From NCBI RefSeq assembly GCF_017348835.2, contig NZ_CP071375.1: a stretch of DNA of 64,000 bases, one strand, 5' to 3'. Below are positions 11,448-17,726 of this stretch, piece by piece. Within the stretch, counting starts at the first letter, position 1, and every line of letters starts with the position of its first letter. Made by a program: the position numbers. This DNA comes from Escherichia coli (lineage in GTDB: Bacteria > Pseudomonadota > Gammaproteobacteria > Enterobacterales > Enterobacteriaceae).

Positions 11448-14400
11448 TAACCGCTGATTTACCCGGCGCAGTCTCTCCTGCGCCGGTGTATTAACCTATC
11501 TCCTGTAACGCATGTCTCTGGCGTTCGACGATATTGGTCCACAAATTGTCTTTATCGTCAGTCCACAAATTAATCAGCAAGGCAAAAAAGCGTTCTGCTG
11601 CCGGAGAAAGCACGGCATCTTTGCGGCGAATAATCCCCAATGTCCGACGTATAACGGGTTCCACCAGTGGGATACCAATAATCGAAGAATAGGGCGCATG
11701 GGGCATTGCCAGACCAGGAAGCGCTGAAATCCCCAGTCCCGCCTCTACCAGTCCTAATGACGTCGAAAGATGACGCACTTCGTAAAACCAGTCCAGCTTC
11801 CAGGGCTTGTCGGCTAGCTGTTGTTCTATCAACAGTCGGTTGCCGCTGGAGGAGCGTACGCCAATCATTTTGTAACCCACTAACTCCTGCCATTCTACAA
11901 GCTGCTTTTTGGCTAATGGATGGTCACGCCGACAGGCCAGCACGAACGGCTCGTTGACCAGTGGGCTAAAATCAATGGATGAATTTGTGACGTTGTTCAT
12001 GTTTATGCCAAAATCTGATTCGTTACATAGCACCGATTCCATGCAATTATTCGTGCCTTGTTCCAGAATCCGCACTTTAATATTGGGATACAGCTCATTA
12101 AATTTACCGATTGCCAGCGGTAAAAAATAAAATACTGCGGTCGGAATACACGCTAACGTCACCATACCACGATGATAAGCATTCATATCACGAATATTAA
12201 AAAGCGTTTCATCGAATTTCTTTATTAATTCCCGCGCCTCCGGGAGCAACCTTTTTCCTGCTTTTGTTAACGTAACCTTGCGAGTTGTACGCTCAAATAG
12301 TTGAATATGTAAATCTTCCTCCATCTTTTTTATTCTTCGCGTTAATGCAGGTTGCGTAATATTGAGTAATTTAGCGGCATTGTTAAATGAACTGGACTCT
12401 GCCAGTATGACAAATGCCTTCATACTTGATAATTCATGCTTCATTATTACTCCGGAAAATGGAAGCGACGATTTTGGGTGGCTGGCCGTTAAAAATTTTA
12501 ACTGCATTTAGCCAACTTAAATTAATGAAAAAATGTTATTAATCGTTGAGCTAAAGTCATTAGAGATGCTTTGCCCTTAATGTAACCATATCGCAATAAG
12601 TTATGTTTTTAAATTGAGGGCATTATTATGAAAAAAATACCCTGCGTGATGATGCGAGGTGGAACCTCGAGGGGCGCGTTCCTGTTAGCGGAACATTTAC
12701 CCGAAGATCAAACGCAGCGCGATAAAATATTGATGGCAATTATGGGTTCCGGTAACGATCTGGAAATTGACGGTATTGGCGGCGGTAATCCGCTGTCCAG
12801 TAAAGTCGCCATTATTAGCCGCTCCAGCGATCCGCGTGCAGATGTCGATTATCTGTTTGCTCAAGTTATCGTCCATGAGCAACGTGTCGATACCACGCCT
12901 AACTGCGGCAATATGCTGTCTGGAGTTGGGGCATTCGCCATTGAAAATGGTTTGATTGCAGCGACTTCGCCAGTTACCCGCGTACGTATCCGCAACGTCA
13001 ATACGGGTACGTTCATCGAAGCTGATGTGCAAACGCCAAATGGAGTTGTCGAGTACGAGGGTAGCGCCAGAATTGACGGCGTACCGGGTACTGCCGCACC
13101 GGTTGCGCTCACTTTCCTGAATGCCGCTGGAACGAAAACCGGAAAAGTATTCCCGACTGATAATCAGATTGATTATTTTGACGATATCCCGGTGACATGT
13201 ATCGATATGGCGATGCCAGTCGTCATTATTCCGGCTGAATATCTGGGAAAAACAGGTTATGAATTACCGGCGGAACTGGATGCCGACAAAGCATTATTAG
13301 CCCGCATTGAATCTATCCGTCTACAAGCGGGTAAAGCAATGGGCTTAGGTGATGTCAGTAATATGGTTATCCCTAAACCTGTGCTTATTTCTTCAGCGCA
13401 GAAAGGCGGGGCAATTAATGTGCGTTATTTTATGCCGCATTCTTGCCATCGCGCGCTGGCGATAACCGGTGCTATTGCTATTTCCAGTAGTTGTGCATTG
13501 GAAGGCACAGTCACCCGACAAATCGTCCCTTCTGTAGGATACGGCAATATCAATATTGAACACCCCAGTGGTGCGCTCGACGTTCATTTAAGTAATGAAG
13601 GTCAGGATGCCACGACGTTACGCGCATCTGTTATTCGGACAACCAGAAAAATATTTTCCGGTGAGGTTTATCTTCCCTGAAAAAATTCGTTGTCAGGATA
13701 AGGACAATCAATAAAGGACTTCTGTATGAGTCATACAGAAAGAACAGGATTTTAAATGAATAAGAAATCGTTATGGAAGCTAATTCTGATATTAGCGATC
13801 CCATGTATTATTGGTTTTATGCCAGCTCCGGCAGGATTAAGCGAACTGGCGTGGGTGCTTTTTGGTATTTACCTGGCGGCCATTGTGGGTCTGGTTATCA
13901 AGCCTTTCCCGGAACCTGTCGTACTGTTAATTGCTGTTGCTGCCTCCATGGTGGTGGTCGGTAACTTATCCGACGGTGCGTTTAAGACCACCGCCGTATT
14001 AAGCGGTTACTCTTCAGGTACTACCTGGCTGGTGTTCTCGGCGTTTACCTTAAGCGCCGCATTTGTGACCACCGGTTTAGGTAAACGTATTGCCTATCTG
14101 CTGATTGGTAAAATCGGTAACACCACGCTGGGTTTGGGTTACGTTACGGTATTCCTCGATCTGGTATTGGCTCCGGCAACACCGTCTAACACCGCGCGTG
14201 CGGGCGGCATTGTGTTACCGATCATCAACAGCGTGGCGGTGGCTTTGGGGTCCGAACCGGAAAAAAGTCCGCGTCGTGTCGGACATTACCTGATGATGTC
14301 CATTTACATGGTCACCAAAACCACCAGCTATATGTTCTTTACCGCAATGGCGGGGAACATTCTGGCGCTGAAAATGATCAACGACATTCTGCACCTGCAA

Positions 14401-17400
14401 ATTAGCTGGGGGGGATGGGCGCTGGCCGCCGGATTGCCGGGCATCATTATGCTGCTGGTTACTCCGCTGGTGATTTACACCATGTATCCGCCAGAAATTA
14501 AGAAGGTGGATAACAAAACCATCGCTAAAGCGGGCCTTGCCGAACTGGGACCGATGAAAATCCGCGAAAAAATGCTGCTCGGTGTCTTTGTGCTGGCGCT
14601 GCTGGGCTGGATTTTCAGTAAGTCTCTGGGGGTTGATGAATCCACCGTGGCAATCGTTGTTATGGCAACCATGCTGCTGCTGGGTATTGTTACCTGGGAA
14701 GACGTGGTTAAAAATAAAGGCGGCTGGAATACTTTAATTTGGTACGGCGGTATTATCGGCTTAAGCTCCTTATTATCGAAAGTTAAATTCTTCGAATGGT
14801 TAGCTGAAGTCTTTAAAAATAACCTAGCATTTGATGGTCACGGTAACGTTGCTTTCTTCGTTATTATTTTCCTCAGCATCATCGTGCGTTATTTCTTCGC
14901 TTCCGGTAGTGCCTATATCGTTGCTATGTTACCTGTATTTGCCATGCTGGCGAACGTCTCCGGCGCACCGTTAATGTTAACCGCGCTGGCACTGTTGTTC
15001 TCCAACTCCTATGGCGGCATGGTTACTCACTATGGCGGCGCGGCAGGTCCGGTCATCTTTGGCGTGGGTTACAACGATATTAAATCCTGGTGGTTGGTCG
15101 GTGCGGTACTGACGATATTAACCTTCCTGGTGCATATCACCCTCGGCGTGTGGTGGTGGAATATGCTGATCGGCTGGAACATGCTGTAAATATACTCGTC
15201 ATACTTCAAGTTGCATGTGCTGCGTCTGCGTTCGCTCACCCCAGTCACTTACTTATGTAAGCTCCTGGGGATTCACTCGCTTGTCGCCTTCCTGCAACTC
15301 GAATTATTTAGAGTATATCCATTTATTATCTTTCTGCGCACTTCACGGTGCGCAGATATCGGGAGCATTTGATGATCAAGTTATCTGAAAAAGGCGTGTT
15401 TCTCGCCAGTAATAACGAAATAATTGCCGAAGAACATTTCGCCGGCGAAATTAAAAAAGAAGAAGCCAAAAAAGGCACTATTGCCTGGTCTATTCTCTCT
15501 TCTCATAATACGTCCGGAAATATGGATAAACTTAAAATTAAGTTTGATTCATTAGCCTCTCACGATATTACCTTTGTTGGTATTGTACAGACCGCTAAAG
15601 CGTCCGGTATGGAACGTTTCCCGCTGCCGTATGTGCTGACCAACTGCCATAACTCACTTTGCGCCGTCGGCGGCACCATTAACGGTGATGACCATGTTTT
15701 TGGTTTATCGGCGGCTCAGCGTTATGGCGGTATTTTTGTGCCTCCGCATATTGCGGTCATCCATCAATATATGCGTGAGATGATGGCAGGCGGGGGCAAA
15801 ATGATCCTCGGGTCAGACAGCCACACCCGTTACGGTGCATTAGGGACAATGGCAGTCGGTGAGGGCGGCGGTGAGTTGGTAAAACAGCTGCTTAATGACA
15901 CCTGGGATATCGACTATCCGGGAGTTGTTGCGGTGCATCTGACCGGAAAACCAGCGCCGTATGTGGGGCCGCAGGATGTGGCGCTGGCTATCATCGGTGC
16001 CGTGTTCAAAAACGGCTACGTCAAAAACAAAGTGATGGAATTCGTAGGTCCCGGTGTTGCTGCGCTCTCTACCGATTTCCGTAACAGCGTTGACGTTATG
16101 ACCACTGAAACGACCTGTTTAAGTTCTGTCTGGCAAACCGATGAAGAAGTCCATAACTGGCTGACGCTGCACGGTCGCGGCCAGGATTACTGCCAGCTTA
16201 ACCCTCAACCGATGGCGTACTACGATGGCTGCATCAGCGTTGATTTAAGCGCCATCAAACCAATGATTGCGCTGCCGTTCCACCCGAGCAACGTGTATGA
16301 AATCGACACACTGAACCAGAACCTGACCGACATTCTGCGTGAGATTGAAATTGAGTCCGAACGCGTGGCGCACGGTAAAGCCAAACTCTCGCTGCTGGAT
16401 AAAGTGGAAAATGGTCGCCTGAAAGTGCAGCAGGGGATTATCGCGGGCTGTTCTGGCGGTAACTACGAAAACGTCATCGCGGCGGCGAATGCACTGCGCG
16501 GTCAATCCTGTGGCAATGACACCTTCTCGCTGGCGGTTTACCCGTCATCACAGCCGGTGTTTATGGATCTCGCCAAAAAAGGTGTGGTAGCAGATTTGAT
16601 TGGCGCAGGCGCAATTATCAGAACCGCGTTCTGTGGCCCATGCTTTGGCGCGGGCGATACGCCAATCAACAACGGTTTGAGTATTCGCCACACCACGCGT
16701 AACTTCCCGAACCGCGAAGGCTCTAAGCCAGCTAATGGGCAGATGTCAGCGGTGGCGTTGATGGACGCTCGTTCTATCGCTGCGACTGCGGCAAACGGTG
16801 GCTATTTAACCTCTGCCAGCGAACTCGATTGCTGGGACAACGTGCCGGAGTACGCCTTCGATGTAACGCCGTATAAAAACCGTGTTTATCAGGGCTTTGT
16901 GAAAGGGGCAACTCAGCAACCGCTGATTTACGGACCGAACATTAAAGACTGGCCGGAATTAGGTGCGCTGACTGACAATATCGTCCTCAAAGTGTGCTCG
17001 AAGATCCTCGACGAAGTGACCACCACCGACGAATTGATTCCTTCCGGTGAAACCTCTTCTTATCGTTCAAATCCGATTGGTCTGGCGGAGTTTACCCTGT
17101 CACGCCGCGATCCAGGTTATGTTGGCAGAAGTAAAGCGACTGCTGAGCTGGAAAATCAGCGTCTGGCGGGGAATGTCAGCGAGCTGACAGAGGTGTTTGC
17201 GCGCATTAAGCAGATTGCTGGTCAGGAGCATATTGATCCGCTGCAAACTGAAATTGGCAGCATGGTCTATGCGGTGAAACCAGGCGATGGTTCTGCGCGT
17301 GAACAGGCGGCGAGCTGCCAGCGTGTGATTGGCGGTCTGGCGAATATTGCCGAGGAGTACGCGACTAAACGCTATCGTTCTAACGTCATCAACTGGGGGA

Positions 17401-17726
17401 TGTTACCGCTGCAAATGGCGGAAGTACCAACCTTTGAAGTGGGGGATTACATTTACATCCCTGGCATTAAAGCGGCGCTGGATAATCCGGGTACGACGTT
17501 TAAAGGTTATGTGATCCATGAAGATGCGCCGGTAACGGAAATTACGCTTTACATGGAAAGCCTGACGGCTGAAGAGCGCGAGATTATCAAGGCGGGTAGT
17601 TTGATTAACTTCAATAAAAACCGTCAGATGTAAAAAGCGCCATGTGAATGTAGGTCGCATTCGGCACTTATTGTCGGATGCGATGCTGGCGCATCTTATC
17701 CGACCTACAAATCGCATCGAACCGTA

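Follow-up and report, generated by a model that had tools for sequence, protein, structure and literature searches.

The ybhD-ybhHIJ cluster of Escherichia coli lies at positions 11491-17633 of the 64,000-nucleotide stretch of contig NZ_CP071375.1 analysed here (the window), and is a known, near-core operon to which the literature that we searched assigns no substrate. We tentatively propose, with a confidence that falls just short of an even chance, that it forms an inducible module for aconitate isomers, most likely plant-derived trans-aconitate, which would be imported, isomerised and hydrated. The original prediction for this DNA had envisaged uptake of a tri- or dicarboxylate and its isomerisation or dehydration, and had added that the substrate was not established. 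Support for the first statement, in the case of a tricarboxylate, comes from gene families, catalytic residues and synteny as observed here, and full-text literature searches on the gene names agree with the second, having returned no substrate assignment. What the comparison adds is that ‘some carboxylate’ may be narrowed to the aconitate isomers, with YbhJ as a putative aconitase of an anaerobe type.

We propose the following order of events. As long as its effector, presumably the substrate, is absent, YbhD would hold the operon silent. The DASS-family carrier YbhI would then bring trans-aconitate into the cell, YbhH would use a Lys/Cys pair to move the double bond by an allylic proton shift, giving cis-aconitate, and YbhJ, a predicted oxygen-labile [4Fe-4S] aconitase of the gut-anaerobe type, would hydrate cis-aconitate to citrate and/or isocitrate. 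The product could enter fermentation by citrate lyase (citCDEFXG, elsewhere on the chromosome) or the tricarboxylic acid (TCA) cycle. We infer the identity of the substrate, the direction of flux and the effector, and likewise the antiport discussed below. It is known that trans-aconitate inhibits aconitase, and solved complexes of trans-aconitate with aconitase (1ACO and 1NIS) are among the structure matches to the YbhJ model; since trans-aconitate binds the aconitase active site, a dedicated and co-induced aconitase would be sensible, if one may speculate. A bolder version, which we consider possible but somewhat doubtful, makes YbhJ the third true aconitase of E. coli, oxygen-sensitive and with a rebuilt active site (Cys for Asp100 and Asp for Asn258 of the mitochondrial enzyme), which together with YbhH and YbhI would ferment dietary trans-aconitate via citrate in the gut; on this version, the enzyme would have been overlooked for more than 20 years because YbhD represses it in laboratory media, and the loop with Cys92 and Cys97 might serve as a switch that responds to redox state or protects the cluster.

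The four genes are intact in 11491-17633. Open reading frames (ORFs) were found across the span first noted, at 11491-12507 on the minus strand and at 12628-13680, 13756-15189 and 15348-17633 on the plus strand, and domain models place their products in the LysR, PrpF, DASS and aconitase families, as had been expected for a LysR regulator divergent from a three-gene set. With two starts refined, the features of the region are as follows.

11491-12444, minus strand: ybhD, LysR-type transcription factor of 317 amino acids (Pfam HTH_1 and LysR_substrate; RefSeq).
12445-12627, no strand: ybhD-ybhH control region, 183 bp with 32.8% GC.
12628-13680, plus strand: ybhH, PrpF-family allylic isomerase of 350 amino acids, predicted aconitate delta-isomerase (Pfam PrpF).
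13756-15189, plus strand: ybhI, DASS-family anion transporter of 477 amino acids, predicted tricarboxylate importer (TIGR00785).
15190-15318, no strand: enterobacterial repetitive intergenic consensus (ERIC, or intergenic repeat unit, IRU) element inside the ybhI-ybhJ spacer (exact ERIC1R primer match and fold).
15335-15356, plus strand: 10-bp hairpin without a U-run, just 5′ of the ybhJ ribosome-binding site (fold and sequence).
15372-17633, plus strand: ybhJ, aconitase-family Fe-S hydro-lyase of 753 amino acids, predicted anaerobe-type aconitase (Pfam Aconitase and Aconitase_C).
17636-17771, no strand: repetitive extragenic palindromic (REP) and bacterial interspersed mosaic (BIME) elements that close the unit on its 3′ side, before the convergent ybhC (sequence and sub-threshold naRNA4 matches).

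The ybhD start is taken as the ATG at 12444, which has GGAG 5 nt upstream, and not as 12507, where the longer ORF begins without such support. For ybhJ the ATG at 15372 is taken rather than the GTG at 15348, the N-terminal MIKL being kept in homologues.

The proposal turns first on YbhJ. The protein matches the Pfam models Aconitase and Aconitase_C and has its own NCBIfam equivalog, NF008503, named simply ‘hydratase’; this is the sole curated cutoff that it passes, since it misses those for aconitate hydratase (343 against 612 bits for PRK07229 and 287 against 719 for TIGR01342) and falls far below that of the AcnD model (TIGR02333, 64 against 1420 bits). We aligned its residues to pig mitochondrial aconitase and judged invariance over 25 family members, distant paralogues included. 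The three cluster cysteines (C358, C421 and C424 in the mitochondrial enzyme) correspond to C360, C421 and C424 of YbhJ, the four substrate arginines (R447, R452, R580 and R644) to R443, R448, R565 and R643, and the catalytic base Ser642 to S641, and all of these are invariant. The same holds for Asp165-Ser166-His167 (D149-S150-H151), Glu262 (E246), His147 (H131) and Asp568 (D553), while His101 (H93) is nearly invariant. In aconitase the gamma-carboxylate is held by R580, and a retained R580 is the mark of a tricarboxylate substrate. An AlphaFold2 model of YbhJ (pLDDT 89, pTM 0.87) shows a four-domain fold with a C-terminal swivel domain, and in a Foldseek search it is matched best, along its whole length, by 7acn and 1aco, both structures of mitochondrial aconitase, with TM scores of 0.66-0.67; as modelled, YbhJ is built like the mitochondrial enzyme rather than like AcnA. 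Taken together, these comparisons give YbhJ the appearance of a functional Fe-S hydro-lyase with a tricarboxylate substrate.

The genomic company kept by YbhJ orthologues points in the same direction. Relatives were scanned in one genome per species, yielding at least 596; among the best 80 are Enterobacterales at 81-97% identity (Escherichia albertii, Citrobacter, Edwardsiella) and gut anaerobes at 66-73% (the Lachnospiraceae Enterocloster, Hungatella, Lacrimispora, Blautia and Butyrivibrio, together with Megasphaera, Collinsella, Synergistales and Erysipelotrichaceae). Separate look-ups gave 76% for Klebsiella aerogenes and 86% for Edwardsiella tarda. A homologue search over 90% clusters returned enteric matches only among its best 120, at 74% identity or more, and the 50%-cluster representatives were mostly fragments, the full-length matches being distant paralogues, with the 67-73% anaerobe orthologues hidden; the representatives P0148 and P0156, which have no cluster cysteines, were left out of the query alignment. 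When the Megasphaera orthologue served as the seed of a further search, Acidaminococcus was not among the genomes reached. In enterics the four-gene module is kept as a unit despite differing chromosomal position, and in K. aerogenes, where it adjoins the genes for citrate fermentation, a CitMHS citrate-type transporter gene has been added to it in the ybhI-ybhJ spacer.

For the anaerobes, ORFs were called in all loci and clustered, and recurrent neighbours were annotated. In a first context YbhJ is tightly linked to a citrate synthase, which passes NF010635, and to a dehydrogenase whose best matches are isocitrate dehydrogenases (IDH), with gaps of 55 and 3 nt in one locus (L031). In a second, a LysR gene is divergent from YbhJ-citD-citE-citF-citG-citC (e.g., L025). 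Three loci (L019, from Lacrimispora amygdalina, L058 and L073) carry a MatC/CitMHS carrier and a PrpF-like isomerase followed by YbhJ and citrate lyase, and a divergent LysR gene is also found in L019 and L073. In a third context a PrpF-like gene accompanies YbhJ or its paralogues and a 390-residue IDH-like gene, in some cases with an RraA-like protein. Across 51 orthologue loci, a sample drawn outside the enterics and Collinsella in which many loci are short contigs, a citrate synthase and/or IDH-like gene lies on the same strand in 15 and is divergent in 2 more, and citrate lyase genes are present in 8. In a neighbour-joining tree the orthologues of the first two contexts are intermixed in one clade, to which the enteric clade is sister. 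In its active-site segments, E. coli YbhJ does not differ from a citrate synthase/IDH-linked orthologue or from a citrate lyase-linked one. Because these segments are the same across such operon contexts, the family most likely acts on citrate, cis-aconitate and isocitrate, and the simplest reading of the comparison is that it is an aconitase despite the exchange of Asp for Cys.

Some clusters of gut anaerobes and metagenomes stand apart from this pattern. At L054 8567-15872, L028 7250-12432 and L009 2199-12202, a gene for a canonical 650-residue aconitase-like protein is found with a 390-residue IDH-like dehydrogenase. L054 and L009 also hold a YbhJ paralogue (40-59% identity) and a PrpF-like isomerase of a third clade, L028 has no paralogue but an orthologue just upstream, and L054 and L028 encode an RraA-like protein of the fold family of 4-carboxy-4-hydroxy-2-oxoadipate (CHA) aldolase. 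These clusters look like an uncharacterised tricarboxylate pathway distinct from that of E. coli.

The isomerase supplies the second line of evidence. YbhH matches the Pfam family PrpF (PF04303) over residues 1-350 (E 6.5e-167), and its crystal structure is available as PDB 6OTV, deposited as a ‘putative isomerase’; the literature search found no paper mentioning 6OTV, nor any YbhH assay. The YbhH of the present strain differs from the K-12 protein in 6OTV by T57S, two residues from the catalytic K59, and by V188I and P255S. The closest solved structure besides YbhH itself is that of LigU/GalD (PDB 6P3H/J/K), known from protocatechuate 4,5-cleavage and gallate metabolism, which has the same Lys/Cys pair: K59 and C93 of YbhH align with the catalytic K66 and C100 of LigU and are invariant in our alignment (A5). 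YbhH is also 40-42% identical to TarA and TbrA, of which TbrA, located on pGR340 via its drug/metabolite transporter (DMT) exporter neighbour, is a validated PrpF-family aconitate isomerase. By sequence, YbhH is roughly equidistant from a validated isomerase of 4-oxalomesaconate (OMA) and a validated aconitate isomerase. Among the few columns that separate YbhH and its rhizobial relatives from LigU/GalD, N123-V124 of YbhH is Met-Glu in LigU/GalD, and N123 is common to TbrA and to every YbhJ-linked PrpF-like protein; as a sign of an aconitate isomerase this is weak.

The nearest non-enteric relatives of YbhH, at 54-58% identity, are encoded on Rhizobium and Agrobacterium plasmids, in units that comprise a divergent LysR gene, the isomerase and a three-gene ABC importer, with no hydratase, aldolase or downstream pathway genes. 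An isomerase and an importer that occur without hydratase or aldolase imply that the product of the isomerase must be a central metabolite; these are likely to be uptake units for a plant acid (aconitate), and their annotation as ‘4-oxalomesaconate tautomerase’ is probably wrong. The three units inspected (L092-L094) come from Rhizobium sp. C104, R. binae and Agrobacterium larrymoorei, with the isomerase at about 7990-9070.

YbhI matches Na_sulph_symp (PF00939, 649 bits) and the DASS model TIGR00785 (554 bits against a cutoff of 199), and full-length comparison with the characterised E. coli antiporters CitT (citrate:succinate) and TtdT (L-tartrate:succinate) gives 33-34% identity. By analogy, YbhI may swap an incoming tricarboxylate for succinate in anaerobic growth. 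In Edwardsiella tarda (L004/L005 8404-10001) two ORFs, of 230 and 260 amino acids, stand in for an intact ybhI, which was passed over in gene calling and appears to be a pseudogene, while ybhD, ybhH and ybhJ are intact; in E. hoshinae ybhI is whole.

With respect to control, YbhD matches HTH_1 and LysR_substrate, and a 2022 study of LysR systems reported that ybhD deletion strongly raises ybhH expression, that YbhD has one ChIP-exo site and, citing EcoCyc, that Nac controls ybhHI (PMC9068703). In addition, ybhH is among the genomic SELEX targets of CRP (PMC3105977). An alignment of seven enteric intergenic regions (A3) shows that Escherichia, Citrobacter and Edwardsiella share three conserved blocks in the ybhD-ybhH spacer, namely ATTAAT-N11-ATTAAT, a dyad, at 12521-12543, AAAGTCATTAG at 12553-12563 and ATGTAACCATAT at 12580-12591. 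These are candidate YbhD and promoter sites, any of which may belong to YbhD, Nac or CRP. A promoter scan found no consensus sigma-70 promoter in this control region, and the sites returned by the promoter and terminator scan were no more numerous than in shuffled sequence.

Downstream, the 182-bp ybhI-ybhJ spacer folds as a long palindrome (z = -6.1) and matches the ERIC1R primer exactly at 15255-15276, where no match is expected by chance. The Rfam search gave no match above gathering thresholds; sub-threshold matches were to V_AS5 at 15195-15318 and to the REP-derived naRNA4 between ybhJ and ybhC. Because the spacer, with its ERIC element and its hairpin lacking a U-run, contains no terminator-like site in the terminator scan, and because it measures only about 63 nt in Citrobacter, ybhHIJ are likely to be co-transcribed.

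Several points weigh against the use of trans-aconitate and are taken here, where they apply, with the alternative that each would favour. The best placed alternative, unlikely as we judge it, is another unsaturated tricarboxylate from gallate or protocatechuate ring cleavage, OMA or 2-keto-4-carboxy-3-hexenedioate, in which case YbhH would isomerise OMA and YbhJ would take the place of the LigJ/GalB hydratase, yielding CHA. YbhH does exceed the cutoff of the NCBIfam OMA tautomerase equivalog (NF033377 OMA_tautomer, 512 against 440 bits), which is why RefSeq names it a 4-oxalomesaconate tautomerase, and it is slightly closer to LigU (44%, Novosphingobium KA1) than to TbrA (42%, B. thuringiensis), with 44-50% identity to LigU and a GalD-like protein of Klebsiella. 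The chemistry would be parallel, in that OMA may be regarded as aconitate with an extra carbonyl, and L054 and L028, which between them bring an RraA-like protein together with a PrpF-like isomerase and YbhJ paralogues, hint at chemistry of this kind for the paralogues. Gene context argues the other way. LigU is flanked by CHA aldolase, hydratase, amidohydrolases and ring-cleavage dioxygenases, and the GalD-like gene of Klebsiella (K. pneumoniae) adjoins CHA aldolase, whereas no KCH/OMA hydratase, CHA aldolase or ring-cleavage dioxygenase was found in or near the E. coli module or near the closest relatives of YbhH. The YbhJ orthologues with identical active-site segments are linked instead to citrate synthase, IDH and citrate lyase, and the residues at N123-V124 depart from the Met-Glu of LigU/GalD.

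Rather improbable is a C4 or C5 dicarboxylate as substrate, such as L- or D-malate, citramalate, mesaconate, citraconate or itaconate. In nicotinate fermentation the PrpF-family enzyme Mii, partnered by a hydratase of the aconitase family, has methyl-branched dicarboxylates as its substrates. Mii (PDB 3g7k) is also the solved structure that best matches the PrpF-like proteins of the anaerobes, and the closest solved structures to YbhI are the plastid transporters DiT1 and DiT2, for 2-oxoglutarate/malate and dicarboxylates. The sole growth phenotype reported for the module also concerns L-malate: a ybhD mutant is affected in glycerol M9 solely when L-malate is added, and the label given by the authors is ‘L-malate utilization related’ (PMC9068703). 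This phenotype is weak and indirect, however, and malate has no allylic system on which a PrpF-type isomerase could act. YbhJ keeps all four arginines, the R580 equivalent included, and the synteny of its orthologues is with enzymes of citrate and isocitrate.

A third alternative, to which we likewise attach a low probability, is that YbhJ is an inactive paralogue with a regulatory or stress role and that the cluster encodes no working catabolic pathway. In the 2002 work of Blank, Green and Guest, inactivation of ybhJ reportedly left the residual aconitase activity of an acnAB strain unchanged; this negative result was reportedly obtained without de-repressing the operon, which was probably repressed in those acnAB cultures, and negative genetics does not test a repressed gene. 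YbhJ has been called a catalytically inactive aconitase paralogue with reference to that work, in a paper that also describes the ybhJ deletion as H2O2-sensitive and low in NADPH, and AcnA and AcnB as moonlighting RNA-binding regulators (PMC4054840). The low NADPH is seen in an icd deletion as well and would fit a reduced supply of isocitrate. The active site does deviate: Asp100 of the Asp100-His101 pair is replaced in the YbhJ family by the invariant Cys92 (motif TNCHNSLC), with H93 kept, and N258, N446 and S643 are altered to D241, T442 and A642, while the 650-residue canonical aconitase-like paralogues in the same anaerobe loci retain LDH, NRNF and GSSREH. Cys97 is nearly invariant (residues 91-101 correspond to about 15642-15674 in the window), and the loop after Cys92 is the sole low-confidence part of the YbhJ model. 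The region could hold a relocated acid, together with D241, a redox switch or a cluster ligand. Against inactivity, orthologues from different phyla, 67-73% identical, keep every one of the cluster ligands, the catalytic Ser, the His and all the substrate arginines, a sign of selection for catalysis, and Cys92 is equally present in orthologues encoded between citrate synthase and IDH genes.

There is very little to recommend a module that makes trans-aconitate from cis-aconitate and exports it, as TbrA/TbrB of Bacillus thuringiensis do: aconitate isomerases of the PrpF family work in both directions, with formation of trans-aconitate favoured in vitro, and TbrA and TarA are interchangeable, with the transporter proposed as the likely determinant of direction (PMC11495376), but production needs no dedicated hydratase, the E. 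coli paralogues of YbhI, CitT and TtdT, are uptake antiporters, the genes linked to the relatives are catabolic (citrate lyase), and in the rhizobial relatives the isomerase goes with an ABC transporter of the binding-protein-dependent kind, interpreted here as an importer.

Four further points bear on trans-aconitate use as such. In the anaerobes, the PrpF-like neighbours of YbhJ fall into other subfamilies than YbhH, Mii-like and the third clade, with 34-39% identity to it. An engineered E. coli W3110 accumulates 37 g/L of extracellular trans-aconitate on aerobic glucose without re-using it (PMC12492653), so that the module, if it acts at all, must act under other conditions. YbhD behaves as a repressor, whereas TarR, the regulator of the trans-aconitate operon of Bacillus velezensis, is an activator. 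Lastly, the link between E. coli ybhHIJ and aconitate is drawn through comparison throughout.

The trans-aconitate proposal finds its nearest parallel in TarR/TarA/TarB of B. velezensis FZB42 (PMC11495376), where a LysR-type regulator likewise lies beside an operon that opens with a PrpF-superfamily isomerase followed by an importer, and where the isomerase product enters central metabolism by the same logic as we propose for ybhD-ybhHIJ. The two differ in that TarB belongs to the major facilitator superfamily (MFS) whereas YbhI is a DASS carrier, in the dedicated aconitase-family gene ybhJ that E. coli has in addition, in the activation by TarR as opposed to the reported repression of ybhH by YbhD, and in the position of YbhH within a short LigU-like branch. 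Table S6 of the same 2024 study lists Shigella, E. fergusonii, Edwardsiella and K. aerogenes as predicted trans-aconitate users with a tarA homologue of about 40% identity; this homologue is presumably YbhH.

The complete route has been established biochemically in the gut anaerobe Acidaminococcus fermentans, which converts trans-aconitate to citrate, oxaloacetate and pyruvate (PMC3035267, summarising Hartel and Buckel 1996). The predicted order is the same, from uptake and isomerisation to aconitase and citrate lyase, and L019, L058 and L073 encode exactly this set, but in E. coli the citrate lyase genes (citCDEFXG-citT) are elsewhere on the chromosome. An aconitase-family Fe-S enzyme and a PrpF-family isomerase likewise act on aconitate-type substrates in the AcnD-PrpF pair of the 2-methylcitrate cycle. 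PrpF itself has aconitate isomerase activity. Work on Shewanella oneidensis discusses aconitate isomerase activity in connection with PrpF (PMC5690661). In contrast to the E. coli module, the pathway in Shewanella acts on 2-methylcitrate made in the cell and lacks an importer, and YbhJ, as its score against the AcnD model indicates, is not AcnD.

The overall design also recurs within E. coli. The ttdR-ttdABT system for L-tartrate fermentation has a divergent LysR gene, an oxygen-labile Fe-S hydro-lyase and a DASS succinate antiporter, and citT-citCDEFXG, for citrate fermentation, includes the paralogous DASS substrate:succinate antiporter CitT. However, TtdAB is a hydro-lyase of the class I fumarase type and not of the aconitase family, neither system has an isomerase, and YbhD shows little similarity to TtdR (26% identity across 37% of the length).

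Identity to E. coli PE164 is 100% throughout the region, and in that strain RefSeq places ybhD at 11491-12444, ybhH at 12628-13680, ybhI at 13756-15189 and ybhJ at 15372-17633. Its near-core status follows from 5316 of 5426 complete E. coli genomes, each of which has one place covering at least 80% of the query; the 153,915 matching places found for the 7-kb query in E. coli genomes are due to the REP/BIME and ERIC elements. The GC content is 44.5% in ybhD (GC3 0.46) and 48.6% in ybhH (GC3 0.44) against 52-55% in the flanks (53-55% in pgl and ybhC), and near typical in ybhI and ybhJ, a mild hint of old horizontal acquisition that agrees with the cross-phylum distribution of YbhJ.

The module is flanked by modABC, ybhA and pgl on one side and by ybhC and a lambda-like prophage on the other. 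The prophage lies directly beyond ybhC, from 19191 (integrase 19191-20261), and its annotation in PE164 comprises an integrase, an excisionase, an IS3 insertion, kil, cIII, ral and sieB. At the opposite end, pgl (10455-11450) is convergent with ybhD. A PF10282 lactonase of the E. coli Pgl family, 25% identical, is encoded in two anaerobe clusters with LysR and MatC-carrier genes (L060 18375-19514 and L028 14534-15694), the first of which also has a PrpF-like gene. A lactone substrate is possible for these clusters; as a meaningful link to the adjacency of pgl and ybhD in E. coli, the resemblance was set aside as probably a coincidence, given the 25% identity.

If the trans-aconitate proposal is true, four y-genes would gain functions and the aconitase inventory of E. 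coli would be revised, against the published label of YbhJ as an inactive paralogue. Known systems for trans-aconitate assimilation would then reach the Enterobacterales and, via YbhJ orthologues, many gut Firmicutes and Actinobacteria. The YbhJ family is the apparent aconitase of many Lachnospiraceae, and the substitution of Cys for Asp in its catalytic pair is of enzymological interest. Grasses and cereals are rich in trans-aconitate. As rumen bacteria are able to reduce the acid to tricarballylate, what becomes of it in the gut is of importance to the nutrition of herbivores, and the competition of enteric bacteria for niches could be affected as well.

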